32,000 nt of DNA from an uncultured Chloroflexia bacterium (GCA_963718915.1 CAVRAI010000003.1:840001-872000); one strand, 5' to 3'. Positions 9,121 to 30,082 are shown, numbered from the stretch's first letter. Made by a program: numbers and translations. The notes: generated from the letters alone by a model not told the origin.

Positions 9121-10371
9121 ATGGCGTCATTCACTGATCTCGTCGCCAGACATATCCAGCAGCGGCAACAGGAATTTCTGGCTACACTCTCTCCAACGCC
9201 ACACAATCACACGGAAACAATCCTGGCTGAGAGCGTGCAACGATTCTGGCATCCGCTTCCGCAAGACACCGAGGATACACAGACGGAGGCGCTTCCCTCC
9301 AGTTCGGCTGCGGTTGATGGCTCGCGGGCTACGCGGGCGCTGAACGCAGGTGCTGATTGGGTCATCGCGCAGGCATTGCTCCTGGGGACGGGTGGTCTTT
9401 GCCTCACCGCAGCGGATACTGTTCTGCTCAGGGGCGACGCCGAGCGCCCAGCAGTAGATCGCTGTGCGGCCTTGTTGATGCGTTCTCTGGAACTCGACCT
9501 AGCGCTCAAATATGCTCGGAGCGGTGAAGGTGACCTGCTCTTGCTCGATGGTTCCCTTTATGCCGAGTTGCCACATTTGCTCTATCCCCTGGCTGTGCGT
9601 GGTCAGGAACAATTGCCACTGCAGGTGTTACAACGCTACCTCGACCTCTTTGAGTGCTGCCAGGAACGTGGCATAACGCTTCTAGGGGTATCCAAGAGTG
9701 CGCGGTCGAAAGCGCTTGCGCAGGCTATACTTCTCACAAGCCACACAGACACGGTTGAGGGAGATGCAAGCGCTGATGTGGCGCATGTTTCGTTACCGCA
9801 GGCGCCACGACGCGTCGCTCATGACTTCGATGAGATGATGCAACAGGCGCCAACCGATGCAGAGTTACTCCACCGTTGGACATCAGGCGCTGGGTTCAGC
9901 GATCCCATCCTGCTCGGCACCGCATCGTTTGGGCATCGACGCGAGCGAGTTCAGACAGATCCACGGCTACTCGCCGAACAGTTCCGTGGAGGTTCACTGT
10001 CTGAGACCGAGTGTCGCGCCATCTTGGAGCGATTGCGTACTGCTCCCGCCATCGGCACGTTCTACATCCGTCTTGCCCCTGGCGACGATGTGCTTCGGAT
10101 TGACGCGCCAGCCGACATCTATGGAAGAGCAGACAACCATCTGCTCGACGTCCCCCACGAGATGTTGCCATACCAGGATGCAGAGGCTCTTGTCAGATAT
10201 CTGCGTCGCGGATATGGTGGCCCCAATGTCTACAACGCCGCGCTCTATATCGTGGATCGCGAAGTCCGTCTGCACGCACAGACGGTCGATCACCTGTATC
10301 TTTCGCTCTTGCGACGGCAGCTTGACATTCCGATTCGATTTGACCGCTCGACGCTGCGATTTGTTCAGTAG
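9121..10371 (+). CDS. nurA: NurA-like 5'-3' nuclease
   Basis: NurA-type motifs in order: AVDGSRA, SLELDLAL, LLLLDGSLY, LLGVSKSARSK, YNAALYIVDREVR. GGAGGG lies 5 nt upstream of the ATG. Confidence 0.75.
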   Translation: MASFTDLVARHIQQRQQEFLATLSPTPHNHTETILAESVQRFWHPLPQDTEDTQTEALPSSSAAVDGSRATRALNAGADWVIAQALLLGTGGLCLTAADTVLLRGDAERPAVDRCAALLMRSLELDLALKYARSGEGDLLLLDGSLYAELPHLLYPLAVRGQEQLPLQVLQRYLDLFECCQERGITLLGVSKSARSKALAQAILLTSHTDTVEGDASADVAHVSLPQAPRRVAHDFDEMMQQAPTDAELLHRWTSGAGFSDPILLGTASFGHRRERVQTDPRLLAEQFRGGSLSETECRAILERLRTAPAIGTFYIRLAPGDDVLRIDAPADIYGRADNHLLDVPHEMLPYQDAEALVRYLRRGYGGPNVYNAALYIVDREVRLHAQTVDHLYLSLLRRQLDIPIRFDRSTLRFVQ

Positions 10372-10392
10372 CAGCTCAGCAGCAGCTCAGCA
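10371..10392. repeat. 11-bp x2 tandem repeat at the nurA stop
   Basis: GCAGCTCAGCA GCAGCTCAGCA, starting in the last base of the TAG stop codon. Confidence 0.85.
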
Positions 10393-10412
10393 GAGACGCT
10401 TGAGAACGCCCC

Positions 10413-10451
10413 GATGGAGGACAGTGATGGAGGACAGTGATGGAGGACAGT
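10413..10451. repeat. 13-bp x3 tandem repeat, each unit carrying GGAGGA plus ATG
   Basis: GATGGAGGACAGT x3, followed by a partial fourth unit (ATGGAG). ATGs at 10414, 10427 and 10440 fall in three different frames. Confidence 0.9.
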
Positions 10452-12155: not shown

Positions 12156-12217
12156 CGGTTAGGAGTCGACCGAGCGCTGGCGAGATGACTTGTTTGTGAT
12201 GAGAGGGATGGAGCAGG

Positions 12218-13204
12218 ATGGGTGATCTGGATAGCCGCGAAAATCCTGGTGAGACTCGGCAACGTGAGCGGGAACATGAAGATATGTGGACGAATGATAT
12301 TTTGCGGGTGGTGGTGACGGCCGACAACCATCTTTCTGCATTTACACCTAAACTCTCTCCACAACGACTGAGCGAACGTCGGCAACGGCTGCGCAGGGCA
12401 TTCGCGCGGGTGGTGGATGAGGCTATTGCCCGGCAGGCCCATCTGTTCATCCAGGCAGGCGATCTTTTCGACAGCATCGAGCCACGCAATCTGGAGCGCG
12501 AATTCGTCGCCGCACAGCTTGCGCGCCTGCATTCGGCTGGTATTCAGACATTCGGCATCAGTGGCAATCATGATACGCCACGCCAGCGTACTGAGCATGG
12601 TGGTTTCGCTCCTCAGGGTATCTATGCCGAACTTGGGGGTATTCACTACTTCCCTGAATCGGACTGCATCAAGCCCGTTCTGGTTGAGGCGGCACGTATG
12701 CGCGTAGCGGTGGCAGGTCTGAGTTGTAATCCAGGTGCGGCGCCCGGAGGCGATCCGCTCGATGATGTGGTGACAGAAGACCCGGATGGCAACCTGGCGC
12801 GTGCAGATGTTGGTATCCTGATACTGCATGCGGCTATCGAGGGTCATGGCTTTCCCAGCGAAGATGAGTTATTCGTCCGACGAGCGAGCATCGAGCGTAT
12901 CACAGGCTTCAAGCTGATCCTTGCGGGACATGTTCATGCCTACGCGCGATTCGACGTAGCCAACAAGTCCGTGGTAGTGTGTGGCCCTACGGCGCGTATG
13001 AGCTTTGGCGAGGCGGAGGACAAAACGGGCTTTGCTTATCTGGAGCTTCGCCACGATGGACGCTTCCATTCCGAGCATGTTGCCATTCCCTCTCAGCCAC
13101 GGCATATTGTGACAATCCAAACGTCCGAACTCTGGCCCCAACAACAGCAGCAGATTCTGACACCATCAGATCGCATGACGATCACCGACTGCCGACGCTG
13201 CTGA
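12218..13204 (+). CDS. Mre11/SbcD-family metallophosphoesterase nuclease domain (ends prematurely relative to family architecture)
   Basis: All phosphoesterase motifs are present: VVTADNHL, QAGDLFD, GISGNHD, ILILHAAIEG, LAGHVHAY. GGAG lies 5 nt upstream of ATG 12218. Stop at 13202-13204 after a Q-rich stretch. Confidence 0.85.
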   Translation: MGDLDSRENPGETRQREREHEDMWTNDILRVVVTADNHLSAFTPKLSPQRLSERRQRLRRAFARVVDEAIARQAHLFIQAGDLFDSIEPRNLEREFVAAQLARLHSAGIQTFGISGNHDTPRQRTEHGGFAPQGIYAELGGIHYFPESDCIKPVLVEAARMRVAVAGLSCNPGAAPGGDPLDDVVTEDPDGNLARADVGILILHAAIEGHGFPSEDELFVRRASIERITGFKLILAGHVHAYARFDVANKSVVVCGPTARMSFGEAEDKTGFAYLELRHDGRFHSEHVAIPSQPRHIVTIQTSELWPQQQQQILTPSDRMTITDCRRC

Positions 13205-13358
13205 TGTATCTGGCATATCTGCCGCAGTAGCGCCATCCGATGCGCCATCAGCAACCTATCCGCCGGATGCTGTCCAGGACATCACAGCGCTTCCAGGCTC
13301 TGATTCTACACGTCCTGCCGCAGACACTGCGGAAGCTGAGGATACCGTACACCGAGCA

Positions 13359-13724
13359 ATGCAGGTGATTCTCGATCGGATCAGGCCGTACTGTACCCCT
13401 GACGCGATGGTACGGCTCTGCCTCACAGGTCCGATTTCTCGCGAGCGCTACCGCGCACTTGATCTGCGCAAAGTTTGGCTTATCGCGCAACATCAGGCGT
13501 TCTCGTTTGAACTCGATGAGTCTGGCCTCTTTCTGGTCGAGCAGGGATCGCAGGAGCAGGTGGTTCGTGGTGAGCGCATCGCGCCGCGTGAGATGCTGGA
13601 GCAGGTCATGGGAGCCTGGATGGATCGTGCCAAGACAACTGCTGAACGCACGCTTTTGGCAAAGACTCGCGAACGAGTTCTCACATTATACGAGCAGTTA
13701 ACGGGGGGGGAAGCGACGCGATGA
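13359..13724 (+). CDS. Mre11 C-terminal (capping/Rad50-binding-like) domain encoded as a separate ORF in another frame
   Basis: VILDRIRPYCTPDAMVRLCLTGPISRERYRALDL... resembles the region that follows the nuclease core in single-chain Mre11/SbcD homologues. This frame is open from 13179. Its stop overlaps the next gene's start (ATGA at 13721-13724). Confidence 0.55.
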   Translation: MQVILDRIRPYCTPDAMVRLCLTGPISRERYRALDLRKVWLIAQHQAFSFELDESGLFLVEQGSQEQVVRGERIAPREMLEQVMGAWMDRAKTTAERTLLAKTRERVLTLYEQLTGGEATR

Positions 13725-16700
13725 TTACGCTCCGACATCTGCATGTGGAGAACTTTAAGGGGCTGGATAGCGTAGACCTCTCCTTCCCTGAACAGGGCAG
13801 CATCCTCATCGAAGGCCATAACGAAGCAGGAAAGTCAACCCTTTTCGAGGCAGTCTATGTCGCACTCTATGGTGAGCCTTTAGTCGGCGAGGACAATCGC
13901 CCACGTCTTGAGGAGGTCATCAAGCATGGTCAGCCGCAGGCGCTGGTCGAATTGACCTTCGCCGTCAGCACCGAGCAACTCACGATACGCCGTGTCTTGA
14001 GACGGGAACAACCTCAACAGGCGCGGCTTACTATCCGCCAACCCAATGGTCATGAGGAGACTGTCAATCGTCCCACCGCCGTCAATCGACGCATCCTGCA
14101 AGAGTTGAACAATTTGGACGGCGATAATCTGCGCAACTCGTGCTTCGTCGAGCAGAAGGAACTGGGACGGCTGGAGGACATGAATCCCAGCAGGCGTGAG
14201 CAGGCAATCCAAAGCCTCCTGGGACTTGAGCGATTGACAAAGCTCTCAGACCAGTTCAAGTTCAAGCGCGAGCAGGAACGCGAGCTAGATCATGCACGGC
14301 GTCTACTCGAACTGGCCTACGCGCAACAGGATGTACGGGTGCTGGTGGTGGAAGAGCAGGCGGCTGCTGAACGTCTCGATGCCACGAGGATTGCCGCGCA
14401 ACTCACAGAATGCGCTGCGCTTGAAGAACAGCAGACGGCTCTCCGGGAGCAGTCGCAGGCAAATGTATTCCGTGAGACCGATCTACGCGGGCGGCTGGAG
14501 TATGCTGGCCGCATACGCGGCCAGGTTTCCAGGTGCAATGTGGTGCAGCAGCAACTGGAAAGAGCGACTGCTCAAAGGGAAACTGTAGAGCGGTTGAAGG
14601 GGAAGCTGGCAGAGATGGATGCCATCGAGCGCCAGGCAATACCCGAAACGAGAACACAACTCGACCGAACCTTGACGGCGCTCAAGTTGGTGGTTGACGC
14701 CGAAGAAAAGCGCATGGCAGTGCATGATGCTACTGGCATTGAGCAAGAAGCGCTACGTGCCGTTGCAGAGCTTGAACGGGCTAAAGAGGTCGTGCGTCAA
14801 CGGGCAGAAACGCTGGATATATCACGTGCGCGAGCGAATCAACACCGCAAGGAAGCAGCTTCGTCGCGCGAACAAAACCAGCGACAACTCGCGATACTGA
14901 GCGCTCGACATAATCAGTTGAGCCATATGCTTGAGTTGGTTATGGCATGGGAGCATAAACGCGACGCATTAGAGGCAGTGCGTCAGCAGATTCGTGATGC
15001 AGAGAAGAATGCGCAAAGGCTCCTGGAGCTTCGCGCTACCCTACTGCAGCGAGAAGAGACAGCCCACCAAGCGGTAGGTAGAGCGGAACAAGCGGAACGT
15101 AAGCGTCAACAGGCGGAGTCGCACCGGCGACAATCAGAGGGATATGAAGCGCTGCACGAGTGGATACGCCTGAAGGAGGTTGAGGCCTCGCTCTCCGGCT
15201 TTGCGCAGGATCGCACCACAATGGAAGCGGAGCGCCAACAGGCCACCGCTGCGTATGCGAGCGCCCAGGCGCGAGCGCGCGGGTTATTGTACCAAACAGC
15301 GGCCACTATGCTGCTGGCAATGATTGCTCTCGTAGCCGGAGCTATTCTATCCCCCTGGCTATTGGTCATTGGAGCTATCCTTGGAGTAGTGGCTATCTTC
15401 CGTGGTGGCGGCTATTGGCGTTCTCGCGTTGCGACGACAGCGGGTAAACAGGCAGTCGAGAGCGTGGCGAACAAGCTTCGCGAGCTCACAATGCGCTATC
15501 AGGCGGCGGTGCATGCTGGGGGTGATCCTGCCCAGCTCGGTCAGCGTGAGCGTGCCCTTACCGCAGCAGGATTCGCAGTCCCCTCGTCGCTTGATGCTGC
15601 GCGTAATCTACTGGCCAGGCTGTCTGCGGAAGGGATCATAGACTATCAGCGTGCAAGGGTGTCAGCAGATGAAGCGGTGACGACACTGGCCCGATTGAAG
15701 GCCGAGGCAGAGCGAGCACAAGGCGATGTCGATCAGACCAGGGTGGCGCTGCACAACCTTGAAGAGCAGGGTGATGCGTCTGTAATGCTGCGTGAACTCC
15801 ACATACGTGAGACCCAGGAGAGCAAAGCAGCCGAAGCTGCTGAGGCAACGGCTCGCGAGGCTACGAAAGGGGAATTGTCATGGCCGACGAATCAAGCTCA
15901 GATCGACATGGCGGCTGCGGCATGTCAGGCGGAGCAACAAACCATTCAGCGCACAATGGCTGATGCGGAAGCCCAGACAAGGCGCATAGAGCATGACGAT
16001 GAAGATGCTATCGCGCAAGCACACCAAGTACTTAGAACCGCTGAGGACGCTGTTGCGGTATTGCAGATGCCTGATCCTCAGGCAATGCTTACGGATGCGC
16101 AGGCAAATCTTGTCCATGCCGAAGAACTCGCGCGCGCAGCTGAAACGCAGTCGCAGTTGGCTGTTCGGGGCATGGGATTATCGCCCGAACGGACGGCAGT
16201 CGAGGCGGCGCGTGGGCGAGTAGAGGAGCGTCTGCGGAACCTGGAAAGCCAACTGACAACCCGGCCAGCGGTTGAAACTGCGTTCACTAACGCACAAACG
16301 ACATATGCAGACATGCTGCAGAAAGCGAGCAATGCGCTCCTGGCAATCGTGGAATCAGCCCGTTCACTTGCAATCGCATCGCTTCAAGGCGTCGCGGCGC
16401 TTGAAGATCAGGCCGCGCGTGAGCGTCCGTTGGCCGCCAGGCTAGACGAGGTGTGTGCTGCCCTCGTATCTGCGCTCACCGAGCTTCATGAGGCAGATGC
16501 ACAGACTGAGCTAGAGCGCCTCCTGCATGAGAAGGGGACACTGAACCAGCGCCTACAGTCTATGGAGAGTCAACTTGCCTCTATTGAGGGGGACATCCAG
16601 AGTATCTTGGCGGCGCGTCACCTCCCTACGCCTACCCAATATACTGCTACGGCATTGGCTGCTGTGTGGCCGTTGATCGGAACAGCCTCGGCTCACGAGC

Positions 16701-17440
16701 TTGATCGTATGCAACTGGAACTTGAGCAAGTTCGCAACCGCCACTTCGCAGCGCGTGATCGGGAGCATCGCCTGACCGAAATACTTGGTGATCCAGGGGT
16801 GGAACTCGAGGTCGAGGCGTGTGGCCATCGCGTCCAAGAACTCGATGAGGAGCGAGCCATCTGCCAGCACGCCATCGGCATAATCCAGGAGACTCGTGAT
16901 CGCATTGCTCGGCAGGTTCTGCCGACCACAGAACGCAATATGGAATTGTTGCTTCGTGAACTTACCATGCACCGCTACTGGAGCGTTCGATTGACACCAC
17001 CTGCCAGCGAAGAGAGGCAGCTCAACCAGCTTGATTACCGCATTCGTGTATGGGATCAGACAGCCCAGCGCTATGTTGCCAAGAATCTCTTCTCTGGAGG
17101 TACACGAGATCAATGTTCCCTGGCATTGCGGCTCGCCTTTGCTCTGGCGACTCTCCCACAGGAGCTAGGCATTGCGCCTGGTTTCATTTTTCTGGATGAG
17201 CCATTGAGCGCCTTCGATGCCCAGCGTGCGCAAGCACTTGTGAATCTGCTCACGACAGGAATCATTGCTCAGCAGTTCGCCCAGGTCGTGGTCATCTCGC
17301 ATCAGCATGCGTTTGATCGCAACGCATTTCAGTATCATATTCGTATGGATAGTGGCCAAGTCGTCGAGAGCGATCTCCCAGTGATGCCCAGCCACTCTTT
17401 GCAACGCACGCCTATGAAAGCCTCTAGTGCGCGTGCGTGA
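13721..17440 (+). CDS. Rad50/SbcC-like SMC-type ATPase with central hydrophobic hairpin
   Basis: Walker A GHNEAGKSTLFEAV. Q-loop FVEQKELG. More than 800 aa of heptad-like E/Q/R/A-rich sequence. Signature FSGGTRDQCSLALRLA. Walker B FIFLDEPLSAFD. H-loop VVISHQH. Hydrophobic block TAATMLLAMIALVAGAILSPWLLVIGAILGVVAIF at residues ~526-560. Confidence 0.9.
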   Translation: MITLRHLHVENFKGLDSVDLSFPEQGSILIEGHNEAGKSTLFEAVYVALYGEPLVGEDNRPRLEEVIKHGQPQALVELTFAVSTEQLTIRRVLRREQPQQARLTIRQPNGHEETVNRPTAVNRRILQELNNLDGDNLRNSCFVEQKELGRLEDMNPSRREQAIQSLLGLERLTKLSDQFKFKREQERELDHARRLLELAYAQQDVRVLVVEEQAAAERLDATRIAAQLTECAALEEQQTALREQSQANVFRETDLRGRLEYAGRIRGQVSRCNVVQQQLERATAQRETVERLKGKLAEMDAIERQAIPETRTQLDRTLTALKLVVDAEEKRMAVHDATGIEQEALRAVAELERAKEVVRQRAETLDISRARANQHRKEAASSREQNQRQLAILSARHNQLSHMLELVMAWEHKRDALEAVRQQIRDAEKNAQRLLELRATLLQREETAHQAVGRAEQAERKRQQAESHRRQSEGYEALHEWIRLKEVEASLSGFAQDRTTMEAERQQATAAYASAQARARGLLYQTAATMLLAMIALVAGAILSPWLLVIGAILGVVAIFRGGGYWRSRVATTAGKQAVESVANKLRELTMRYQAAVHAGGDPAQLGQRERALTAAGFAVPSSLDAARNLLARLSAEGIIDYQRARVSADEAVTTLARLKAEAERAQGDVDQTRVALHNLEEQGDASVMLRELHIRETQESKAAEAAEATAREATKGELSWPTNQAQIDMAAAACQAEQQTIQRTMADAEAQTRRIEHDDEDAIAQAHQVLRTAEDAVAVLQMPDPQAMLTDAQANLVHAEELARAAETQSQLAVRGMGLSPERTAVEAARGRVEERLRNLESQLTTRPAVETAFTNAQTTYADMLQKASNALLAIVESARSLAIASLQGVAALEDQAARERPLAARLDEVCAALVSALTELHEADAQTELERLLHEKGTLNQRLQSMESQLASIEGDIQSILAARHLPTPTQYTATALAAVWPLIGTASAHELDRMQLELEQVRNRHFAARDREHRLTEILGDPGVELEVEACGHRVQELDEERAICQHAIGIIQETRDRIARQVLPTTERNMELLLRELTMHRYWSVRLTPPASEERQLNQLDYRIRVWDQTAQRYVAKNLFSGGTRDQCSLALRLAFALATLPQELGIAPGFIFLDEPLSAFDAQRAQALVNLLTTGIIAQQFAQVVVISHQHAFDRNAFQYHIRMDSGQVVESDLPVMPSHSLQRTPMKASSARA

Positions 17441-19915: not shown

Positions 19916-20039
19916 TACATAATCCACAGTGCAGGGTTGCCCACAATCAGCGGTTTGCCTGGAAGAAAAACAACCCTGGCGGTCAAACCAGCGTAGAGAA
20001 TACCAAACGGCCTTGGATATCAGGGTAAGAGGGTCGCTT

Positions 20040-22616
20040 GTGATTCGAATAGTGAGCAAACAACGATCACGGCTTGGCATGACAGCACGACGGCTTCTTG
20101 CTGTTATGTCACTCGGCATTCTTGTAGTCACTCTATCTCCGCTCGCTTCTCTCTCTGTCCTTGCGCAGCCAGCCAGTTCCATCGCGCCGACAGCGTCCGC
20201 GCCTGCTGGCCATGTCACGATCCTCGTCCTCGATATGTCCGGCTCGATGGGCAGCAACGATCCGAATGGATTGCGCTGCTCGGCGGCTAACGCCTATATC
20301 GATTTGAGCGGGCCGGGCGATTTCGTCGGCGTCGTCGGTCTGGATAACACCGGCCCGACGGGCGGCGCGCATAACTTCCCGCTGGCGCAGGTATGGGCCG
20401 AGCCGAGTGAAATGGCGACGGTTGCCGCGCGCGCGCAACTGCATAACACCATCGCTACGAAGTCCCATAACTGCAAGCCCGACTCCGCGACCCCCACCTA
20501 CGACGCCTTGCAACGAGCGCTGACGATGCTCACGGCATCCACCGCGCAGACGCATCTGCCCGGCTCCGTCATCCTGCTGACCGATGGCGTGCCCGCGCCA
20601 CAACAGAACGAGCAGATCAGCGCGATCCAGACCGACCTCGTGCCGCAGTTCAAGCAGCGCGACTTTCCGGTTGATACGGTGGCCCTTGGCGCGGACGGCA
20701 CGCTGCGGTCGTTCCTGAGCGACCTCGCCAACGCGACGGGCGGCGCGTACTATGACGATGGACACGGCGTGGTCAGTGGCGTCTCGCCCTTGAACATCGC
20801 GCCCTTCTTTGTCAGCATCTTCGCCCAGCGCAATGGCCGCACGGTGACGCATGACATCCCGCCGACAGCGCTTTCCGGCGGCACGGTCTCGCGGAACTTC
20901 TCTATCGGCGCCTTTGTCTCGCATCTCGATGTCGTCGCCGTCAAAGACTCACCTGCTACGCGCGTGACGCTGACCGCGCCCAACGGCCAAGTCTTGCCGC
21001 CAGCGGTCGCCGGAACATTTATCTCCAGCGACCCTCATTACGTCATCTTCAGTGTGGATCATCCGCAGAGTGGGGCATGGCAACTGAATGTGACTGGCTC
21101 CGGGCGCTTCCTGATGGATAGCCTCAAGCTCTCGACCCTCGGCCTGAGCATCCTCGCGCCCGCCTCGGACACGCCAGAGCCGCTGGGCCAGCCGCTGACG
21201 GTGAGCGCGACGCTCAACGACAATGGCACGCCGATCACTGGCAGCCGCTATAGCATGAACGGAACGATTGCCTACAGCGGCGGCACGGGTAGCTATACGC
21301 AGGAGTTCGTGCTGGACGACCACGCCAGCCCGGGTACCTATGCCGCGCAGATTACGATTCCGCCCAGCGCGCCCGCTGGAACCTATAACGTCACGATCAA
21401 CGCGCGCGAGGTGAGCGATACCATCGCCAGCGCCAATCGTCTGGTCCGCATCGAACTCTTCCCATCGCCGCTGCTCGTCGCTCCCTCCACCGGCAAGCTC
21501 ACCACCGATACCGTCGCCACGAGCGAGACCCTGTGGGATCCCGCACTGCGCGCGATCTATAGCGTGCCGTTTGGGGTGCTGACCTGGCTCAGTGGCTGGC
21601 CGTTGCAGGGGCATCCGGTGGTGGACGGCGCGCGGCTCGACGGCGCGGTTCAGCTCGACGGCAAACCGTATGCTAACGCCAGCGTCAGCGGCTTGGCCAC
21701 ACGCGATGGCTCGAAGACGGCGATCCCGCTGCATATCGCGCCTGGCGAGAACGGGCGCTTCACGGCGGCCTTTACGCCCAGCGGTGACGGCCAGTACGCG
21801 CTGACGTTCAGGACGCTGGGCAGTTTCAAGGATTCGCATGGCGACCTCGGCACGACCACCCGCACGGTGGCGCTCAAGACGCAGCCCGCCTCGCTCGCGC
21901 AGGAGGCCATCGCCTGGGCCATTACGTTGCTATATCTCGCCATCCTCGTGCTGATTGTGCTGCTGATCCGCTATGCCATCTCGCAGAAGCCGTTCGGACG
22001 ATTGGTCTCCAACGACGGCGGAGGCGGCGAGGAGTTCTCCCGCGCACGTCGCGGGCTATTTGGGCTGCTGCATCCGGGCACGGTGCTCTCGCAGCAGATG
22101 GGGCTTGACCCCGGCCTGATCTTCAGCTTCCGGCGCGGCAACCGCATCACCGTCGAGGGCAACGGCGGCGGTCGGCGGGCCTACCGGCTTGGCGGCGAGC
22201 CGCTCCCCACCAGCCCCGTCCCTGCCGCGGAGTCGCTGCTGACGACCAACGAGGGGATGTCCTATACGGTGAGCGCGTCGAGTAGCGATGAGTTCCTGGA
22301 CGAAGAAGAGGGCACGCGGCGCGGCGGACTGCTGCGCCGCAAATCGGCCAGCGACGACTACTTTGACGATGACGACGCTCGTGGGCGGCGCGGTCTGTTC
22401 GGGCGGCGGTCGCGTGGCGACGACTACGATGACGAGGGGAATCGCGGCAGCCGACGTAAATCGCGGCGCGCGCGGGACGACTACGACGATATGGACGACG
22501 ACGGCCCCTCGCGCTCGCGCGGTGGTTCGCGTGGCCGTTCGCATGGCGATGATTTTGACGACTATTCTTCAGGCGGGCGATCCAGGAAATCGCGGCGGCG
22601 CGATGATGACTATTGA
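20040..22616 (+). CDS. exported von Willebrand factor A (vWA) domain protein with a single C-terminal TM helix and a charged disordered cytoplasmic tail
   Basis: GTG 20040 is preceded by AAGAGGG; ATG 20079 is an alternative start. Signal-peptide-like MTARRLLAVMSLGILVVTLSPLASLSVLAQP. MIDAS motif VLDMSGSMGS, TPTYDAL, ILLTDG. Long beta-rich ectodomain. TM helix AIAWAITLLYLAILVLIVLLIRYAI. R/D-rich tail. Confidence 0.85.
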   Translation: MIRIVSKQRSRLGMTARRLLAVMSLGILVVTLSPLASLSVLAQPASSIAPTASAPAGHVTILVLDMSGSMGSNDPNGLRCSAANAYIDLSGPGDFVGVVGLDNTGPTGGAHNFPLAQVWAEPSEMATVAARAQLHNTIATKSHNCKPDSATPTYDALQRALTMLTASTAQTHLPGSVILLTDGVPAPQQNEQISAIQTDLVPQFKQRDFPVDTVALGADGTLRSFLSDLANATGGAYYDDGHGVVSGVSPLNIAPFFVSIFAQRNGRTVTHDIPPTALSGGTVSRNFSIGAFVSHLDVVAVKDSPATRVTLTAPNGQVLPPAVAGTFISSDPHYVIFSVDHPQSGAWQLNVTGSGRFLMDSLKLSTLGLSILAPASDTPEPLGQPLTVSATLNDNGTPITGSRYSMNGTIAYSGGTGSYTQEFVLDDHASPGTYAAQITIPPSAPAGTYNVTINAREVSDTIASANRLVRIELFPSPLLVAPSTGKLTTDTVATSETLWDPALRAIYSVPFGVLTWLSGWPLQGHPVVDGARLDGAVQLDGKPYANASVSGLATRDGSKTAIPLHIAPGENGRFTAAFTPSGDGQYALTFRTLGSFKDSHGDLGTTTRTVALKTQPASLAQEAIAWAITLLYLAILVLIVLLIRYAISQKPFGRLVSNDGGGGEEFSRARRGLFGLLHPGTVLSQQMGLDPGLIFSFRRGNRITVEGNGGGRRAYRLGGEPLPTSPVPAAESLLTTNEGMSYTVSASSSDEFLDEEEGTRRGGLLRRKSASDDYFDDDDARGRRGLFGRRSRGDDYDDEGNRGSRRKSRRARDDYDDMDDDGPSRSRGGSRGRSHGDDFDDYSSGGRSRKSRRRDDDY

Positions 22617-22688
22617 CTGCCAGTTTGCGCGATAATCGCCTCGCTGGCAAACGGCCAGGCGAGGAGCAGCTTATAGATATGTAGACAA

Positions 22689-25442
22689 ATGACGATGAAC
22701 AGAGGTGATGGCATGGGCGACACTGATATGACACTTAACGCGGCCAATGGAGCGGAAGACAGACCACGATCAGCGGCAGAGTCGCAGATAGAAGTGCCGT
22801 CGCTCAACATTTTTCTTGGCAGTACTCCAGCGTACTCGGCCCTGGAGATGATGCGCCAGCTTGTCCATCTCTCGCCTTCTGACCATCGGCGCGTCGCGCT
22901 GGTCTTCCTCGATATCGACTCGCCCCCGGCGGAGGTTCAGCAGTTCCGCCAGGAGCATCTGGGCGTGCTGCGCGAGTTTGATCTGCGCATCTCGGTGGCG
23001 CACGGCGTTGTCTACGCGGACCAGTTGCCGCAGCCCATCGCGACCCATACCTACATCCCTACCAAAATCCCTGAGTCGTTCGATAACGGCGCGGGTGGCA
23101 TCCGCAACAACGGACACGTCGCCGCCGCAACCGACCGCGCCAAAATCGATCAGCTGCTCGAAGAGGCGCTCTCCGCGATTGGGGCGCTGCCTCCGGAGCG
23201 TGGGGCGCGCCCGGTGAGCGAGGTGCAGGTGAATATCGTCGCCTTCCTGGGCGGCGGCACCGGCAGCGGCATCCTGGGCGATGTCGCCGTAATGGCCCGA
23301 CATCGCATCTTGCAACGGAATCTCAAACACCGCCTGAATATCTTCTGCCTGCTGCCAGAGCACGTCCGCGAGGCGACCACCAATGACGTGAGCTGGCGCA
23401 AGAGTAACGCCACCGCGACCCTGATGGAGCTGATCGCGCTCAGCCTGGTGCGCGAGAATCGAGGTGGCGCGCGCTACACCAAATATATGGCGGAGACGCC
23501 CTATGAGGTGCGTGGCGAGACCATCGCCAACGAGGTCTATCTCTTCGGCAAAACTTCGATGGTCTCAGCGGAAGACGCGGCGCGCATTATCGGCCTTGAT
23601 CTCTATATGCGGGTGACCAACGCATCGGGTGTCGGCTTCCTCGAACGCTCTAAAGCCGTTGACCGCCGCACGCTCGGCAACTTCGACCGCACCGGCCTGC
23701 CGACGATGTTCGGCACCACCTGCCCGCTGGAGGTCGCCTTTCCCGCCATCGAGACAGCAACCGCCTTTGCCCGGCTGACCGCCTCGAAGGTGCTGCCGCT
23801 GCTGGCGCGCGACATGAGCGAGGCGCGCGGCCAACTGAACGCGAGCGATTTGGACGAAGTGAAAGAGTGGGACAGAGCGTTACAGCCAGAGGATCCGCCA
23901 CCCTTCAGCGATAAGAGCTTCCAGACGGCGGGGCGCGACCGGCTCGATATGTTGGAGGCGCGGCTGAGCAAGCAGGTGCAGGAGGCAACCGACGAGATTG
24001 CCGAACTGGCGGAGCAGAAGGAAGAGGAAGAGAAGAAGCGTATCTATAGCGCCGCGCTGGAGCCGCTCGGCGTGCAGATCGCCCGACTGGAGACGCGCAA
24101 GCGTATCTATAGCGCCGCGCTGGCTCGCGTGCAGGATCAGAATGTGCCCAGCAAGGGACGCCCCGACCGCCAGCTCCAGCGCAAACTGCTCCGGCCGCTG
24201 CCACTGCCCGGCGCAAAAGACCGCAACGTCGCCGCCGTCACCGACGACTTCAACCGCGTTCAGCGGCGGAATGTGCGCAACGAGTATCTGACGCGCAAGA
24301 AGCGCCTGCTGACCAAACTGCTCGAATATGTCAACGCCGAGTTGCAGCACGTCAAGCGCTTCCAGGGGGATGTCGAGGTCGATCAGTCGGCGCGCGACCT
24401 GGAGAAGCTAGCCACCTCGTCGTCGGCCTGGCGCGGCGAGTTGGACAATACCCACATTCACCGGCGCCACGTCTTCGATCTACCCGGCATGCCCGGCATG
24501 AATACGGGCGGGCTATCGTCGCCGCCGGTCGAGCGCCTGTACGAGCACATGACCTCGCGCGACCTGCCCTCCTATGCGCAGCGCTTTACTGAGTGGATAC
24601 AGACGCGCCACGGGGCCGATGCGGCGCTGGCGGCGGGCACGGGCAACGAGCTACGCGACCGGCTGGTGCAATATCTACGTGACGAGGTCTATCTCAAGCG
24701 GCTGCTGGAGATGAATCTCTTCGATTTGCTGGAGGTCTGCTGCGTCGAGTCGGGTGAGCGCGCCGATCACAAGATCGAGAATATCTTGCTGGCGCATCTG
24801 CAACACATCAGCGGCCTGGCCCGCGAGCTGGTGGCCTTCGAGGCGCAACTCTGGCACGAGGGCAGCGGTATGCTCAGCACCAGCCTCTACATGGGGATGA
24901 GTTGGAAGAGCGGCTTTCAGCGGCGGATTCTGGATCGCGCGCGCGGTCGGCTCGGCGCCATCGCCAAAGAAGGCGCAAGCCCAATGCTCGCCAGCGCGAT
25001 TGACCCGCACCGGCTGCAACTGGCCTATGGGCAGCACGCCATCAGCCTGGGCACCATTCCCGATTTCTATCAGGAAGCCAACAGCAGCATGGGCGAGTTC
25101 CTGCGCCACCAGTCATACTGGTTTGTCGATGGCAGTAAGCAATCGTATGGTCGGAGCCGAGCGCCCGTCTTCAGTTCCGGCGAGATGGAAAAGCTGGTGA
25201 TGGATCCTAATGCGCTTCTCGATGGTAAAAGCACGCTGCCAGCGCGTATCATCCGACAGGTACAGCGTGGCGCGGGCGATGCGCCCACGTGGGCGACGAG
25301 CCAGCCGGGCAGCGCTTACGCCCCGACGGCGCCCACCGCGGCATCCAACGGGCAGTATCCGCCACAGCAGCCAACGTATCCGCGTGGCGGCGCTAGCGGT
25401 ACGAGCGGATATGGGAGCGGCGGTGGCGGGTCGAGCTTCTAG
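22689..25442 (+). CDS. large tubulin/FtsZ-superfamily-like GTPase domain protein with coiled-coil region and Gly/Ser/Tyr-rich tail
   Basis: T4 signature GGGTGSG (23250-23270) matches the PROSITE tubulin pattern. T3-like FDNGAGGIRNNGH (about 23079-23120). E/K/R-rich helical middle. C-terminal tail QYPPQQPTYPRGGASGTSGYGSGGGGSSF. Alternative start ATG 22713, preceded by GAGGTGA. Confidence 0.8.
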   Translation: MTMNRGDGMGDTDMTLNAANGAEDRPRSAAESQIEVPSLNIFLGSTPAYSALEMMRQLVHLSPSDHRRVALVFLDIDSPPAEVQQFRQEHLGVLREFDLRISVAHGVVYADQLPQPIATHTYIPTKIPESFDNGAGGIRNNGHVAAATDRAKIDQLLEEALSAIGALPPERGARPVSEVQVNIVAFLGGGTGSGILGDVAVMARHRILQRNLKHRLNIFCLLPEHVREATTNDVSWRKSNATATLMELIALSLVRENRGGARYTKYMAETPYEVRGETIANEVYLFGKTSMVSAEDAARIIGLDLYMRVTNASGVGFLERSKAVDRRTLGNFDRTGLPTMFGTTCPLEVAFPAIETATAFARLTASKVLPLLARDMSEARGQLNASDLDEVKEWDRALQPEDPPPFSDKSFQTAGRDRLDMLEARLSKQVQEATDEIAELAEQKEEEEKKRIYSAALEPLGVQIARLETRKRIYSAALARVQDQNVPSKGRPDRQLQRKLLRPLPLPGAKDRNVAAVTDDFNRVQRRNVRNEYLTRKKRLLTKLLEYVNAELQHVKRFQGDVEVDQSARDLEKLATSSSAWRGELDNTHIHRRHVFDLPGMPGMNTGGLSSPPVERLYEHMTSRDLPSYAQRFTEWIQTRHGADAALAAGTGNELRDRLVQYLRDEVYLKRLLEMNLFDLLEVCCVESGERADHKIENILLAHLQHISGLARELVAFEAQLWHEGSGMLSTSLYMGMSWKSGFQRRILDRARGRLGAIAKEGASPMLASAIDPHRLQLAYGQHAISLGTIPDFYQEANSSMGEFLRHQSYWFVDGSKQSYGRSRAPVFSSGEMEKLVMDPNALLDGKSTLPARIIRQVQRGAGDAPTWATSQPGSAYAPTAPTAASNGQYPPQQPTYPRGGASGTSGYGSGGGGSSF
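24036..24123. repeat. in-frame 63-bp-period internal duplication in the tubulin-like gene
   Basis: The 25-mer AAGCGTATCTATAGCGCCGCGCTGG occurs at 24036-24060 and 24099-24123. It encodes KRIYSAAL twice. Confidence 0.9.
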
Positions 25443-26096
25443 CGCGGGCGTGATGTAGTTTCACGTATTACACAGAACAGCGCGCATCGTGGCGGGCGCG
25501 GCAGGCCGTAGCATAAATGCTACGGCGAATGGGCAGAGCGGCGCGTGGGGGCCGGGAAATTCGCCGGGGCCTTTGGGCTTCCGGCTTGCTCGCCTAGCAC
25601 GCGGTCTAGCACGCGGTTCGGAGTTAATTCGTACAGTTCATCATGCGCCAGGGCCGCCAGCCAATCCCGCCATTGGCGCCGAAACCGAAAATACCCATAG
25701 TACGTACATACGAGGGGCGTGATTCCGTCTCCCTCATGGAACGAAGTATTTTAGTAGATGTAGTAGGCGGCGTTTTTACTCTGTAACAGGGGCAAGGTTC
25801 GTGGTTGGGCGGGTTCGCGGCATGAATGCCGCGGCTAATCCCGTTCGATGAGCATTCCGCTACGTGGCAAGAGGGTGAATTGCCGCAGGATTAGCTGTAG
25901 TCTTCAGGCTACGGCGCGGTACGAGCAGACGAACGCTGCGATTCATCCCAGGGGTCATACCGGATCGCGGTCTGGAGAGCCTGCGCAGGCAGGCTTTGCG
26001 GCGTAGCCCTTAGGCGCGGCTTTAGCCGCCAGCCGCCCTACGGCGGGGATTCATACCGAATAGCAGGCAAAGACAGGCATAGGCAAGGAGCAGAGC
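25443..26096. other. 654-bp non-coding spacer rich in short perfect hairpins, palindromes and a 12-bp x2 tandem repeat
   Basis: GCCGTAGCA-TAAA-TGCTACGGC (25505-25526). CTAGCACGCGGT x2 (25594-25617). CGCGGCAT/ATGCCGCG (25816-25833). GCTAATCC...GGATTAGC pairing across about 45 nt. GCCTGCGCAGGC palindrome. GCGGC-TTTA-GCCGC. No convincing ORF. Confidence 0.6.
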
Positions 26097-26378
26097 GTGG
26101 CAACCTCGACGCCGATTCGCTTCCGACCAACGATCGTCCTCTGTGTGGGCGACCGTGGCCGCGAGGTGGGCGCGCAACTCTCCATGCTCTTGCCAGGGCT
26201 GGATGGCGCGCGTCAGGCGGGTATCGCGCTGCTCACGGTCGATGACGACGCGACGATGACGGCGCGTTGCTCGGCGCCTGGTACGATCCGGGCCTCAGCG
26301 CCGTCGCCAGCCTACCCGGCCCCCTACCCGACGATACGCCCATCAGCATTGATCGCCGCCCGTTACCAACCCTCGTGA
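26097..26378 (+). CDS. probable true 5' end of the downstream tubulin-like paralogue, in a different frame (only the first ~55 codons look genuine)
   Basis: GTG 26097 has AAGGAG 6 nt upstream. PTIVLCVGDRGREVGAQLSMLL...AGIALLTVDDD aligns with LNIFLGSTPAYSALEMMRQLVHL...RVALVFLDIDS of the upstream paralogue. Confidence 0.4.
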   Translation: MATSTPIRFRPTIVLCVGDRGREVGAQLSMLLPGLDGARQAGIALLTVDDDATMTARCSAPGTIRASAPSPAYPAPYPTIRPSALIAARYQPS

Positions 26379-28762
26379 CGGAAGGACTGCGCGGCCAGCA
26401 CTACGAGCACTACGTGCGCTCGACGCCAGAAACACAGGTGCGCCGTGGCGTGCTGGACGACGCCGTGGTGGGACACATCCGCGACAATGGCTATAGCGTG
26501 CCGCGAGCGATGGCGGTTGTCTGGATCGCCGCCGCCGCCGATTCGCCGCTGCTGCTCGATGTCGCGCGGGATGTGCGTACCTCCATGCGCAGCGAGAGCG
26601 TCGAGTCGTGGGTATTGCTGGCGCTGACCAATACCTACCCACACGATCCCGCCGAGCATCTGGCGCAGGAAGAGCGCGTCGCCGATCAGCCGTGGCGCGA
26701 GCTACTGCTGGGAGATGAGAAGCCTGCCCAACCAAGTCACCAGCCCGGCCAGTTCAGCCCTTCCAAAGAGCCGCCGCTGGCAACCTACTCCTATATCTTC
26801 GAGACGCACGACGAGAAGGGCCATTTCTGGGAAGGCCCGGATGAGGTCGCCTATGGCGCGGCGGAGGCGATTTTCGTGCTGACCGCCACTGGTATCACCA
26901 CCACGCGCGAGTACGAGGAGACCCTGCGGCGGGCTACACCCAACATGGTGCGCCAGCCGTTCGAGCGGATGAGCAGCGTGGGCACAAGCCGCCTGACCTT
27001 CCCGCGCGCGCAGGCTGAGCTGTACTGCGCCAGCCGCCTCGGCGCGACCATCCTCGACGAATGGGCGCCGGAAAAAGCCGCCGACCTCTCCGACCAGGAC
27101 CAGCGCCGCGAGGCCGCCGAGGCCCGGCGCTACCTGAACGGCATCAACGGCGAGATGCGCGATAGCGACACTGTGGTGGCAGCGCTCCGCCACAATGAGG
27201 GACGCCGTTCGCGCCGCCACTCGCGCGAGCACCAGCTGCCGCCGGATGACGCCGCCAAAACATTGGTCTACCGCCACTTCAGCCCGGCGGTGGTGCGCCG
27301 CTATATCACCGCCCGCACCGACGAGCCGACCGCGCTCGAAAACCAGCTTCCGCGCGCCGAGGAGGGCTTCGCCGCCTGGCAGGAGGTCGTCAAGCCAGCG
27401 TGGGAACGTTACGGCCACGAGACCGAGCGCGCGCTCTCGACCAGAACCAACGAGCAGGTGCTGGAGGGCGCCATCGGCGTCGAACGCGCCTATGCCTACA
27501 TGGATGGTCTGAATAAGGCGCTGCTGGCCGAACAGGAGAATCAGACGCTCGGACGCGGCGCACGCAACGCGCGCTATCTGCGCTTTCTGGAGACGCTGGA
27601 AGATGAGAGCAAAGGCCCATGGGAGGCCGATATCATCCGCCAGCCCGACGAGCCGGAGCTGACCCGTGAGGCGGCGCTGATCGAGCGACTGGCGGCGCGC
27701 TATCGCTGGCTGAAGCGCCACCGGCCCGCCGTCGCAACCTTCGTCGGCGCGGGACTGCTGATCGTCCCGATGCTGACCTTGCTGCTAGATGCGATTCTGG
27801 CCGCTCCAACTCGCGGCGGTCTGTTCTCGCTGCCGTTGCTCGCCGTCTACTCGGTTGCGCTGGTGGCGCTGGCCTCATGGGGCTATGCCGCCTGGCGGCG
27901 ACGGCAACGCGAGGATGCTCTTGCCGATCTGCGCAAGGTCTATCGCACGATGTATCGTTACCGCTGCGACGAATACGAGGATGAGTTACGGGCGGAGGCG
28001 CTCCAGGGTCTGCGCCAGCGGGCGGAGCGCATTCTGGATCGGCTGGCGAACTGGGAGCGCTTCATCGGCGAGGTTGCGCGCACCCTGCGCGACGAGGCCG
28101 ATAGCATCGAGCTGCGCCTTTTCAACGGCGCGGTCGGGCGGCGCGATATTCTGGTGGCGAACCGTCGTCGGCTGCGGCTGGACGGCTATTCGCTACGACG
28201 CTTCGAGGAAGACGTGAGCAAGCTGCGCCAGATTCGGCCCATCGAGGGTTCGCCGTGGCACAGCAACCAGCATGAACTACTGCTTCAGCTACGCGCCCGT
28301 CTGCATATGACCGCCAGCCTGGTAGATTCGCCGGTGCTGGCGCTGCTCCCGCCGATTCGCGAGTATTGCCACGAGATTGTGCGCCCGTATCTCACGGGCG
28401 ATCTGGTCTACCTGAGCGGTGCGCTTGATGCGCTGCCCGCCGATTCGTCGAACAGCCTCTTCGATACACTGGTGGACCGCTCGGTGATCCTCTATCAGCC
28501 GGAGGATCAGCCACGCGCGGCCACGGTCTTCATGGCGGCGCGTGAGGAGGATAGGCTCGCTATTCTGCGCACGAGCAAACAGCGCGGGCTGGTGACGCTT
28601 GGCCTGGAGGATCGCGAATGGCTGGCGACGCTGCGGCTGCTCCCCGGTGGCACGACGCCGACATTCTGGCGCCATCGCACCGTTCACACCCATCCCTCGC
28701 TGCCAACGCCCGACTGGGCTTCCGACTCCATCACGATGCAGCGTGGAAGAACACAAGGATAG
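26267..28762 (+). CDS. tubulin-like paralogue with a degenerate nucleotide-binding motif and a central two-helix TM hairpin
   Basis: Collinear similarity to 22689-25442: VVWIAAAADSPLLLDVARDV vs VNIVAFLGGGTGSGILGDVAVM; SSVGTSRLTFPRAQAELYCASRLGATILDEW vs MFGTTCPLEVAFPAIETATAFARLTASKVLPLL. TM helices VATFVGAGLLIVPMLTLLLDAIL and LFSLPLLAVYSVALVALASWGYAAW. TTG 26267 has no SD, so the true start is probably 26097 via a frame change. Confidence 0.75.
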   Translation: MLGAWYDPGLSAVASLPGPLPDDTPISIDRRPLPTLVTEGLRGQHYEHYVRSTPETQVRRGVLDDAVVGHIRDNGYSVPRAMAVVWIAAAADSPLLLDVARDVRTSMRSESVESWVLLALTNTYPHDPAEHLAQEERVADQPWRELLLGDEKPAQPSHQPGQFSPSKEPPLATYSYIFETHDEKGHFWEGPDEVAYGAAEAIFVLTATGITTTREYEETLRRATPNMVRQPFERMSSVGTSRLTFPRAQAELYCASRLGATILDEWAPEKAADLSDQDQRREAAEARRYLNGINGEMRDSDTVVAALRHNEGRRSRRHSREHQLPPDDAAKTLVYRHFSPAVVRRYITARTDEPTALENQLPRAEEGFAAWQEVVKPAWERYGHETERALSTRTNEQVLEGAIGVERAYAYMDGLNKALLAEQENQTLGRGARNARYLRFLETLEDESKGPWEADIIRQPDEPELTREAALIERLAARYRWLKRHRPAVATFVGAGLLIVPMLTLLLDAILAAPTRGGLFSLPLLAVYSVALVALASWGYAAWRRRQREDALADLRKVYRTMYRYRCDEYEDELRAEALQGLRQRAERILDRLANWERFIGEVARTLRDEADSIELRLFNGAVGRRDILVANRRRLRLDGYSLRRFEEDVSKLRQIRPIEGSPWHSNQHELLLQLRARLHMTASLVDSPVLALLPPIREYCHEIVRPYLTGDLVYLSGALDALPADSSNSLFDTLVDRSVILYQPEDQPRAATVFMAAREEDRLAILRTSKQRGLVTLGLEDREWLATLRLLPGGTTPTFWRHRTVHTHPSLPTPDWASDSITMQRGRTQG

Positions 28763-28773
28763 GTGGCGCGCCG

Positions 28774-29370
28774 ATGATGACGGACCCCTACGGCCAGACG
28801 AATCCGAGACCGGCAAATGGCGCCATGACGCCCGCGCAGATTCCGCCGGTGGGCCACATCTCGCCACGGATGCTGCTGGCAGTGGCCGCGATCTACAATC
28901 CGGCGATTCTCATCGGCTACTTCCTCTATATCTACGGGCCAAGCAATAGCTGCGTGCTGGGCGGTCTCTGCGGTTTCGGCGATTTTCCCGGCATCATCCA
29001 GCTTTTCCTGCTGATCGTCGGCGCTGGCATCTTCACAGCAGTCGTTTTCGTGCCGCTCTGGTGGCTGCTGGATGAGGCGCGTCCGGCCCGCGACATCGTC
29101 TCCCGCACCGCCCGCGATATGATGCGCTTCGTCACGATTCGCCCGCTGATGGTCGGCTACGGTGTTATTCTGGCGCTGCTGCTCATCATTGGCCTGCTCG
29201 TGCACCGCGTCCCGCCGTCACTCTTCCTGCTTGGCCTCTCGTCGACGATCATCTGCTTCTGGTGCGCCGCCAGCCCGGAGTTCACTCCCCCGCCACCTGC
29301 CTCACCGCCACAGCAGCGTCCTCGTCCCGCCAGCAGTGTCCTCCCGCGCGATCCACCGCCGCCGCTATAG
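28774..29370 (+). CDS. four-TM membrane protein with Pro-rich C-terminal tail
   Basis: ATG 28774 lies 12 nt after the upstream stop (28760-28762). Four hydrophobic helices. Tail PPPPASPPQQRPRPASSVLPRDPPPPL. The upstream part of the 250-aa ORF overlaps the previous gene. Confidence 0.7.
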   Translation: MMTDPYGQTNPRPANGAMTPAQIPPVGHISPRMLLAVAAIYNPAILIGYFLYIYGPSNSCVLGGLCGFGDFPGIIQLFLLIVGAGIFTAVVFVPLWWLLDEARPARDIVSRTARDMMRFVTIRPLMVGYGVILALLLIIGLLVHRVPPSLFLLGLSSTIICFWCAASPEFTPPPPASPPQQRPRPASSVLPRDPPPPL

Positions 29371-29482: not shown

Positions 29483-29520
29483 ATAGGCGAGGGTGTGTGA
29501 TACCCTCGCCTATGTGTTGT
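29483..29520. terminator. bidirectional terminator hairpin between convergent genes
   Basis: Perfect 12-bp stem ATAGGCGAGGGT (29483-29494) / ACCCTCGCCTAT (29502-29513), 7-nt loop, then GTGTTGTTG. Confidence 0.6.
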
Positions 29521-29557: not shown

Positions 29558-29848
29558 CTACCAGTCGTTGCGACGACCGTATCCCCCACCGGAGCGCTCG
29601 GGGCGCGGCTGCGCCTCGTTCACACGAATGCTCCTGTTGTCGAGCGTCGTCCCATTGAGGGACGCGATCGCGTTGCGTGCGGCGGTATCGTCAGACATCT
29701 GAACAAAGCCGAAGCCCTTGCTGCGACCAGTATCACGGTCAATCACGACCGAAGCCTCGACGACCTCACCATACGCGCTAAAAATCTGAACCAGCTGCTC
29801 GTTGTCAGCTGAATAGGGCAGGTTGCCCACGTAAATCCGGGTGGCCAT
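29558..29848 (-). CDS. RRM-type RNA-binding protein (glycine/arginine tail)
   Basis: RNP-2 IYVGNLPY and RNP-1 KGFGFVQM. ATG at 29848 is preceded by GAAGGAGGGAG. Confidence 0.9.
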   Translation of the reverse strand: MATRIYVGNLPYSADNEQLVQIFSAYGEVVEASVVIDRDTGRSKGFGFVQMSDDTAARNAIASLNGTTLDNRSIRVNEAQPRPERSGGGYGRRNDW

Positions 29849-30082
29849 GTGGCTCCCTCCTTCAAGCAGAATCATGCCGACGCACTGATGGCGTCAGCGT
29901 CCAATACTCCGTGACAAGTCAATCTGTACAGCACTCGCAGACTCATGGAGATTCTTGCTGAGGAGAGAAACTCGATCAGGCAGAGGTTACCAAGAAGAGT
30001 TACATCGTGCATTCGCGATCAACTACGAAGGTAGTATAACACATCTGGCGGATCATTGCCGACGTTCATGTTGCGCGAGTAT

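Follow-up and report, generated by a model that had tools for sequence, protein, structure and literature searches.

What does a tubulin-like GTPase do when its gene lies between the gene of an exported von Willebrand factor A (vWA) protein and those of two membrane proteins? The question is raised by a locus in a stretch of DNA of 32,000 nucleotides (nt) from an uncultured Chloroflexia bacterium (GCA_963718915.1 CAVRAI010000003.1:840001-872000), which is referred to here, at its full length, as the window, with positions counted from its first letter. Four consecutive genes on the plus strand occupy 19.9-29.4 kb of the window and encode, in this order, a vWA protein, a tubulin-like protein, a large transmembrane (TM) protein and a four-TM protein; they are called genes 1 to 4 below. 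An initial annotation, made from the sequence alone, had proposed that they form a membrane module of a composition known from no characterised system. We find that the four genes are real and form a self-contained operon, and we put the probability that this operon belongs to the Chloroflexota-wide FtsZl1 (Pfam Tubulin_2)-vWA class at about 0.9. For that class, a membrane-associated, GTP-dependent assembly has been predicted by comparative genomics.

Gene 2 belongs to the FtsZl1 family

Gene 2 (22689-25442, plus strand) encodes a protein of 917 amino acids (aa), which Pfam, an AlphaFold2 (AF2) model, Foldseek and sequence motifs together identify as a predicted cytosolic GTPase of the FtsZl1/Tubulin_2 family. 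The protein scores 71.7 bits on the Pfam family Tubulin_2 (PF13809; E = 8.8e-20), where the cut-off is 27, and it carries a T1-like LGSTP motif (22815-22838), a T3 loop that reads GAGGIRNNGH (aa 134-143, 23088-23117) and a T4 loop that reads GGGTGSG (aa 188-194, 23250-23270). The length and the T3 and T4 motifs had been given correctly at the outset. Both GAGGIRNNGH and GGGTGSG are invariant in the family alignments, and GGGTG is present in 115 of 115 gene 2 homologues. These homologues are numerous; every named one comes from Ktedonobacteria, their NCBI label is 'tubulin-like domain-containing protein', and a PF13809 match is precomputed for all full-length homologues listed.

The AF2 model of residues 1-404 (predicted local distance difference test, pLDDT, 74.7; predicted template modelling score, pTM, 0.72) gave 334 matches with E < 1e-3 when compared with the PDB by Foldseek. 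The top matches were Staphylococcus aureus FtsZ (5.2e-7), CetZ, the FtsZ proteins of Aquifex and Escherichia coli, phage TubZ, PhuZ and eukaryotic tubulins, all with a probability of 1.0, which places the GGGTGSG protein in the tubulin/FtsZ fold, as had been expected of it. Beyond this domain, a crude heptad heuristic flags aa 416-446 only; there is a charged helical segment at about 23946-24038, possibly a coiled coil, and a weak FlxA-like match at aa 420-469. The C-terminal domain is strongly conserved in sequence and is followed by a Gly/Ser-rich tail. Profile searches of PDB sequences with the gene 2 and gene 3 families returned chance-level coiled-coil matches only. Gene 2 is, in sum, a bona fide FtsZl1 ('Tubulin_2', PF13809) protein and, judged by its model, a soluble protein of the tubulin/FtsZ fold in which all GTP-binding loops are present.

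The four genes are inherited as a unit

A scan of a genome collection gave 43 loci. In about 30 of them the vWA gene and genes 2, 3 and 4 follow one another in this order on a single strand. The arrangement is kept wherever the contig is long enough, over a range of gene 2 identity from 93% down to about 33%. The flanking genes change from locus to locus, but the order holds to identities as low as roughly 24-33% and is the same in the more distant Chloroflexia loci L055 and L056. When the flanking open reading frames (ORFs) were clustered, only these four families proved broadly common to the loci. All four genes are inherited as a unit, which bears out their initial grouping as one module.

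Other genes accompany the unit in part of this range. A fifth family of soluble proteins, about 210-280 aa long, is encoded directly after gene 4 in 16 loci, the most distant included (for example L016 16211-17062, L026 16742-17392, L055 11886-12506 and L056 10024-10680). No convincing domain annotation was found for this family: one of 12 members matches bacterial HORMA (E = 0.0065), with no PDB support, and a HORMA assignment was not adopted. Searches around the cassette loci found no conserved extra neighbours of the GTPase, kinase, FNIII or OmpA type. Two metagenome-assembled genomes (MAGs) hold two divergent copies of the cassette each (L021/L039 and L022/L045), and the two gene 2 products of one such genome share about 72% and 40% identity with that of the window; some genomes have thus duplicated the module or acquired it twice.

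The end of the operon in the window is placed at a perfect palindrome with a 14-bp stem (29483-29513), which scores as a terminator on both strands and beyond which a convergent gene on the minus strand (29558-29875) encodes a small RRM-type RNA-binding protein (RRM_1, E = 1.7e-24). This terminator after gene 4 and the close setting of genes 3 and 4 (11 nt) were both counted in favour of the operon.

Gene 1 encodes a predicted vWA receptor or adhesin

Gene 1 lies in an ORF that spans 19929-22616. The probable start is the ATG at 20079, which gives a gene of 20079-22616 and a protein of 845 aa; GTG codons at 20040 and 19929 are alternatives, and the 858 aa first reported correspond to the GTG at 20040, the less likely start. 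The other features first reported, namely a signal peptide, a metal-ion-dependent adhesion site (MIDAS), one TM helix and a charged tail, were all seen. The N-terminus is hydrophobic and signal-peptide-like (20079-20165). It is followed by a vWA domain with the MIDAS motif DMSGS at 20232-20246 and LLTDG at 20574-20588, which matches Pfam VWA_2 with 28.5 bits, barely above the cut-off of 27. NCBIfam, run on genes 1 to 4, gave matches far below threshold for gene 1 and none for genes 2 to 4. Across the alignment of 31 orthologues the LDMSGSMG block, with the MIDAS residues D52, S54 and S56, is invariant (31/31), as is D169, the aspartate of LLTDG (31/31), and T140 is kept in 28.

The rest of the protein consists of a beta-rich ectodomain, moderately conserved among these orthologues, a single TM helix (aa 610-634, 21906-21980) and a cytoplasmic part, in which a small conserved segment precedes a disordered, Arg/Asp-rich tail that is poorly conserved. 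The tail ends in RRRDDDY (22593-22613), and in other orthologues in YDDDDW, SDDDW, NDDDW or YEDDIF; a C-terminal motif of the DDD[DY][WY] type recurs in the vWA tails of many orthologues. This acidic-aromatic terminus looks like a docking peptide. From these sequence features we predict that gene 1 encodes an exported, single-pass, integrin-like receptor or adhesin, with its vWA head outside the cell and its metal site intact.

Gene 3 probably encodes a divergent tubulin-like membrane protein

Gene 3 had been described as a degenerate paralogue of gene 2 in which AAAADSP stands at the T4 position and which contains a two-helix TM hairpin. Both features were seen: AAAADSP occupies the T4-equivalent position (26528-26548), and the hydrophobic hairpin spans 27731-27895 (helices 27731-27799 and 27821-27895). 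The protein also has a helical region and a conserved C-terminal domain. GGG[TS]G occurs in none of 141 gene 3 family members, against the complete conservation of GGGTG among gene 2 homologues. The GTP-binding loops (T1 GxxG, T4 GGGTG) are missing throughout the family, and the protein would be at best a non-nucleotide-binding pseudo-tubulin. The hairpin gives weak holin-like Pfam matches (Phage_holin_3_6, E = 0.08-0.5), far below threshold.

Several signals point to the same ancestry for the N-terminal domain. Tubulin_2 is weakly matched by 13 of 18 gene 3 family members (best 22.4 bits, E = 8.7e-5), in every case below the gathering score and always at the distal end of the profile (positions 249-355); it is by far the commonest Pfam family in these proteins, any other being found in four members at most. 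A PF13809 match is also precomputed for one distant Chloroflexia orthologue of gene 3. An hhalign comparison of 115 gene 2 with 141 gene 3 N-domains gave E = 0.001 at a probability of 21%, and paired the elements S1-H1-S2 and then S4-T4-H4-S5 in order, with VNIVAFLGGGTGSGIL aligned with AVVWIAAAADSPLL. The AF2 model of the N-domain of a gene 3 orthologue (pLDDT 75.7) has a strand and helix order identical to that of the gene 2 model, and its two best Foldseek matches in the PDB are tubulins (E = 2e-3; probabilities 0.96 and 0.87). It is probable that gene 3 encodes a tubulin-like homologue that has diverged very far; the evidence is moderate and not decisive. The family has few members: when 1.84 billion cluster representatives (50% identity) were searched exhaustively with a profile, 160 were recovered, and all those with a source name come from Chloroflexota.

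Gene 4 (28774-29370, plus strand) starts 11 nt past the gene 3 stop, preceded by a GGAGG-like motif. Its product of 198 aa has four hydrophobic helices (28870-28935, 28984-29070, 29137-29202 and 29221-29271) and a Pro-rich tail, in agreement with the four-TM protein that had been noticed directly after gene 3.

The reading frame of gene 3 and the spacer before it

The first description of gene 3 holds only once its frame has been repaired; the single frame then assumed is not found in the window. The first 54 codons, from the GTG at 26097, and the ORF at 26267-28762 (831 aa by mechanical translation) are in different frames. The N-terminal segment (26097-26248; VATSTPIRFRPTIVLCVGDRGREVGAQL...LLTVDDD), which corresponds to S1-H1-S2 of the tubulin-like domain, and the remainder (26249-28762), both on the plus strand, each align end to end with intact orthologues, and the merged query is covered over 100% of its length by intact proteins of 880-906 aa, with an identity of up to 92%. 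A DNA alignment with six close relatives places the break at one base missing from the window near 26248 (GATGACG-ACG in the window, GATGACGAACG in the relatives); gene 3 is intact in all six, each of which carries the extra base at about 26248. Where the orthologue P0121, 92% identical, has its ATG start, the window has ATA, which leaves the GTG at 26097 as the start of gene 3. A programmed -1 frameshift was rejected, since all six relatives are in frame and no slippery heptamer was seen by eye. Either the assembly is wrong at this base or the gene was inactivated recently. Single-base frame breaks occur in other assemblies too, and interrupt gene 2 in L018, L019 and L032 and gene 3 in L039.

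Genes 2 and 3 are separated by a lineage-variable intergenic spacer (25443-26096), which had been called structured. Its stated length of 654 nt is correct and makes it the longest spacer of its clade: the closest relatives have spacers of 147-470 nt, and most other loci have one of about 10-130 nt. The structure did not hold up. Folding of the whole spacer is no better than that of shuffled sequence (z = -0.5), on which ground a globally structured RNA was rejected, and an Rfam scan of the whole window found two tRNAs only and no match in the spacer. The two tRNA genes lie at 362-433 and 7020-7093 (plus strand).

What the spacer does contain is hairpin repeats. Element A (about 25977-26034) is a sequence of about 58 nt with three hairpins, 98% identical to a copy in the spacer of locus L003 (L003 3615-3675); the middle hairpin differs between the copies by apparent paired changes. 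A first, longer search pattern for element A had no match in metagenomes, and a shorter core was found in seven contigs with unrelated flanks, none of which encodes gene 2 or gene 3. Element B is a palindromic hairpin at about 25811-25842, which also stands beside element A in L048. Repeats of this kind were noted in L003 and in L048-L054, and neither element matches an Rfam family. Since the hairpins belong to short dispersed repeats, the spacer is a landing site for elements resembling repetitive extragenic palindromes or miniature inverted-repeat transposable elements and not a part of the module. It is a lineage-specific gap with dispersed hairpin repeats and no dedicated RNA.

Genes around the cassette

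Upstream of the cassette lies a cluster of the NurA-HerA-Mre11-Rad50 type (9121-17440), and the two are separated by a minus-strand ferredoxin-reductase-like gene and one for a Cof-type HAD hydrolase. Downstream are the RRM-protein gene and that of an MFS transporter. Across the loci as a whole these neighbours are not linked to the cassette; only L004, a close relative, has the HAD hydrolase as well. As a separate observation, the Rad50/SbcC-like ATPase of the upstream cluster (13721-17440, plus strand) has no CxxC zinc hook anywhere and has a hydrophobic hairpin of about 35 residues in the middle of its coiled coil (aa 526-560, 15296-15400), which suggests a putative membrane-inserted apex.

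Relation to described systems

Contrary to what had been supposed, the composition of the operon is not new. In a computational study, Makarova and Koonin (2010, Biol Direct 5:33; PMC2875224) predicted vWA-FtsZl1 operons and proposed that they represent a membrane-remodelling system. A vWA protein is part of most predicted FtsZl1 operons and often has a signal peptide or TM segment and an intact MIDAS; the further companions are lineage-specific membrane proteins, kinases, GTPases or OmpA-like proteins (PMC2875224). Their neighbourhood table includes an operon of Chloroflexus aggregans, with Cagg_1317 (vWA), Cagg_1316 (FtsZl1), Cagg_1315 (1083 aa) and Cagg_1314 (128 aa), whose layout is the same as that of the window (PMC2875224). 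In the window, as in these operons, gene 2 comes immediately after the gene of a vWA protein that has a signal peptide, TM helix and intact MIDAS, and uncharacterised membrane proteins are encoded alongside. The window cassette differs in having no Ser/Thr kinase, P-loop GTPase or OmpA-like partner; in its third gene, which is of a kind listed there as 'large' or 'membrane-associated' proteins and is read here as a TM-anchored tubulin-like homologue without a GTP site; and in the four-TM gene, which is a fixed part of the cassette and is joined in other lineages by the fifth, soluble gene. A Ser/Thr protein kinase gene does occur in the window (594-2213, minus strand), about 18 kb upstream of the cassette; it is too distant, and on the wrong strand, to correspond to the kinase partner of some FtsZl1 operons.

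A second precedent is found in the computational work of Kaur, Burroughs, Iyer and Aravind (2020, eLife 9:e52696; PMC7159879), who described tubulin-centred GAP1-N2 GTPase systems and took them to serve biological conflict in multicellular bacteria. Among Firmicutes, these systems combine two tubulin-domain genes with a TM protein that has an extracellular vWA domain, a further set of genes close to the one supposed to be without parallel; the tubulin theme was reported there as limited to Firmicutes and Actinobacteria, not Chloroflexota (PMC7159879). The likeness to the window includes the extracellular-vWA TM protein and the association with multicellular, filamentous bacteria, and may extend to tubulin domains fused to coiled-coil or alpha-helical regions and to the presence of two tubulin genes. 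Unlike those systems, the window cassette has no GAP1-N2 or DO-type GTPase with zinc ribbons and no FNIII-repeat protein (no such GTPase or FNIII domain was found in the scanned window ORFs), and its second tubulin-like gene lacks the nucleotide loops and has a TM hairpin. In the analysis of Santana-Molina et al. (2023), Tubulin_2 proteins are a divergent outgroup.

By analogy, the pairing of an active GTPase subunit with a different second subunit or anchor may also be compared with alpha/beta-tubulin, BtubA/B and FtsZ with FtsA, ZipA or SepF, although there is no close sequence relationship and polymerisation of the window proteins is putative. Alpha-tubulin still binds GTP, whereas no GTP-binding signature is present anywhere in the gene 3 family; and the anchor, unlike FtsA, ZipA or SepF, would be a TM hairpin integral to the paralogue itself. 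Gene 1 is reminiscent of integrins in its MIDAS vWA head on beta-sandwich 'legs', its one TM helix, its tail with a conserved terminal motif and its location beside genes for cytoskeleton-family proteins. Beyond the vWA fold this is analogy only, and the gene 1 tail differs in being long, disordered and Arg/Asp-rich. What is new here is the evidence that the third gene encodes a TM-anchored tubulin-like protein without a nucleotide site, the minimal Chloroflexota cassette of four to five genes, and the C-terminal motif of the vWA tail.

A possible mechanism and its alternatives

How might the four proteins work together? The scheme that we favour, to which we give somewhat less than even odds, has genes 3 and 4 making a membrane platform, a tubulin-type contact between genes 3 and 2, and a coupling through the vWA tail. 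The pseudo-tubulin head of gene 3 would contact gene 2 via a tubulin-type interface, and this contact would nucleate, cap or tether GTP-driven oligomers or filaments of gene 2 at the membrane. Gene 3 may in this respect resemble a dead or regulatory subunit beside an active one, or act in the manner of FtsA or ZipA in anchoring FtsZ. Through its cytoplasmic tail, perhaps via the terminal peptide, the vWA protein could tie the assembly to a ligand at the extracellular MIDAS, with signals passing outside-in or inside-out. Candidate outputs are envelope or hyphal organisation, adhesion and a response to attack. A bolder version seems to us quite unlikely: that Chloroflexota independently evolved a two-subunit machine of the tubulin superfamily, in which the FtsZl1 GTPase works with an obligate, nucleotide-free membrane pseudo-tubulin to form a membrane-nucleated polymer or ring, under control, from the cell exterior, of the integrin-like vWA receptor through its acidic-aromatic C-terminal peptide.

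Several points count against the favoured scheme. Every physical interaction in the model is inferred. Polymerisation by the FtsZl1 family is not established, and the T6-H7 elements and the FtsZ C-terminal domain, which contribute to filaments, were not identified in FtsZl1 by Makarova and Koonin (PMC2875224); no experimental work on any FtsZl1 protein or on this operon was found in the literature searched. Gene 3 is frameshifted in this window, and the conserved fifth gene of 16 other loci is absent from the window and its clade. The homology of genes 2 and 3, moreover, is weak in each single test. BLASTP finds no significant similarity between them, and hhalign with default settings on small alignments gives an N-terminal match of 43 columns only. 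The template modelling scores (TM-scores) of the best Foldseek matches of the gene 3 model are about 0.28, with vWA and Rossmann folds interleaved with the tubulins.

These last results invite the reading that the N-domain of gene 3 is unrelated to tubulins and has a Rossmann-like alpha/beta fold, such as that of vWA, in which case the operon would combine one tubulin-like GTPase with an unrelated membrane scaffold. The hhalign probabilities are indeed low (1.4-21%), the Foldseek matches (TM-scores 0.16-0.31) are a mixture of tubulin, vWA/integrin I-domains and Ku, and no Tubulin_2 match reaches the gathering score. The independent weak signals, however, agree and are collinear: Tubulin_2 is matched in 13 of 18 members, against four or fewer for other families, and at the correct end of the domain; hhalign pairs S1-H1-S2 and S4-T4-H4-S5 in order; the two best Foldseek matches are tubulins; and both AF2 models have the same order of secondary structure. 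We regard common ancestry with tubulins as the better account and an unrelated domain as improbable. It is more improbable still that the module is decaying in this genome, with a real deletion in gene 3, an enlarged and repeat-laden spacer that uncouples genes 2 and 3, and hence a pseudogenised copy. The deletion is specific to the window, the six relatives being intact, the start codon of P0121 is ATA here, and the spacer of 654 nt exceeds the 147-470 nt of the clade. Yet apart from the one indel the parts of gene 3 are 92% identical to the intact orthologue, full length and without further stops, genes 1, 2 and 4 are intact, and the single-base breaks in L018, L019, L032 and L039 are compatible with assembly or consensus errors.

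The main rival to the platform mechanism is that the cassette is a conflict (immune or abortive-infection) system of multicellular bacteria, in which the extracellular vWA head senses an invader or surface damage, the tubulin-like proteins serve, by NTP-dependent assembly, as a threshold switch, and the gene 3 hairpin, the four-TM protein or both are membrane-damaging effectors. The two are compatible at the molecular level and do not exclude each other. Kaur et al. place sets of tubulin and extracellular vWA among conflict systems that are enriched in multicellular prokaryotes, Chloroflexi included (PMC7159879), and the holin-like matches of the hairpin, the two divergent cassette copies in some MAGs and the weakly HORMA-like member of the fifth family fit such a role. 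The GAP1-type GTPase and FNIII protein of those systems, however, occur neither in the window nor in the conserved cassette, PADLOC (PADLOC-DB v2) gave no match for genes 1 to 4 at E <= 0.1, and the neighbours are DNA-repair and housekeeping genes and not a defence island. The cassette is conserved throughout the phylum, its enzyme core does not vary, and hypervariable regions were not observed; the HORMA match concerns one of 12 members only, and the holin matches are far below threshold. We consider a conflict system unlikely.

Implications

The cassette alone does not overturn current views, as its core association has already been published. No branch of the tubulin/FtsZ superfamily is described as more divergent than FtsZl1/Tubulin_2, which belongs to a system that was predicted fifteen years ago. 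In Chloroflexota this system takes an unusually compact form, a strictly conserved cassette of four to five genes with no kinase, GTPase or OmpA accessories. Since this form also occurs in cultivable Ktedonobacter species, it offers a practical entry point to the questions that the family poses: whether its members polymerise, what a nucleotide-free paralogue contributes, and how an extracellular vWA domain is wired to a cytoplasmic GTPase. If the pairing with a pseudo-tubulin is true, it would be a new case of specialisation into active and inactive subunits in the tubulin superfamily, and the two-subunit machine, if it exists, would be a bacterial counterpart of receptor-to-cytoskeleton coupling.

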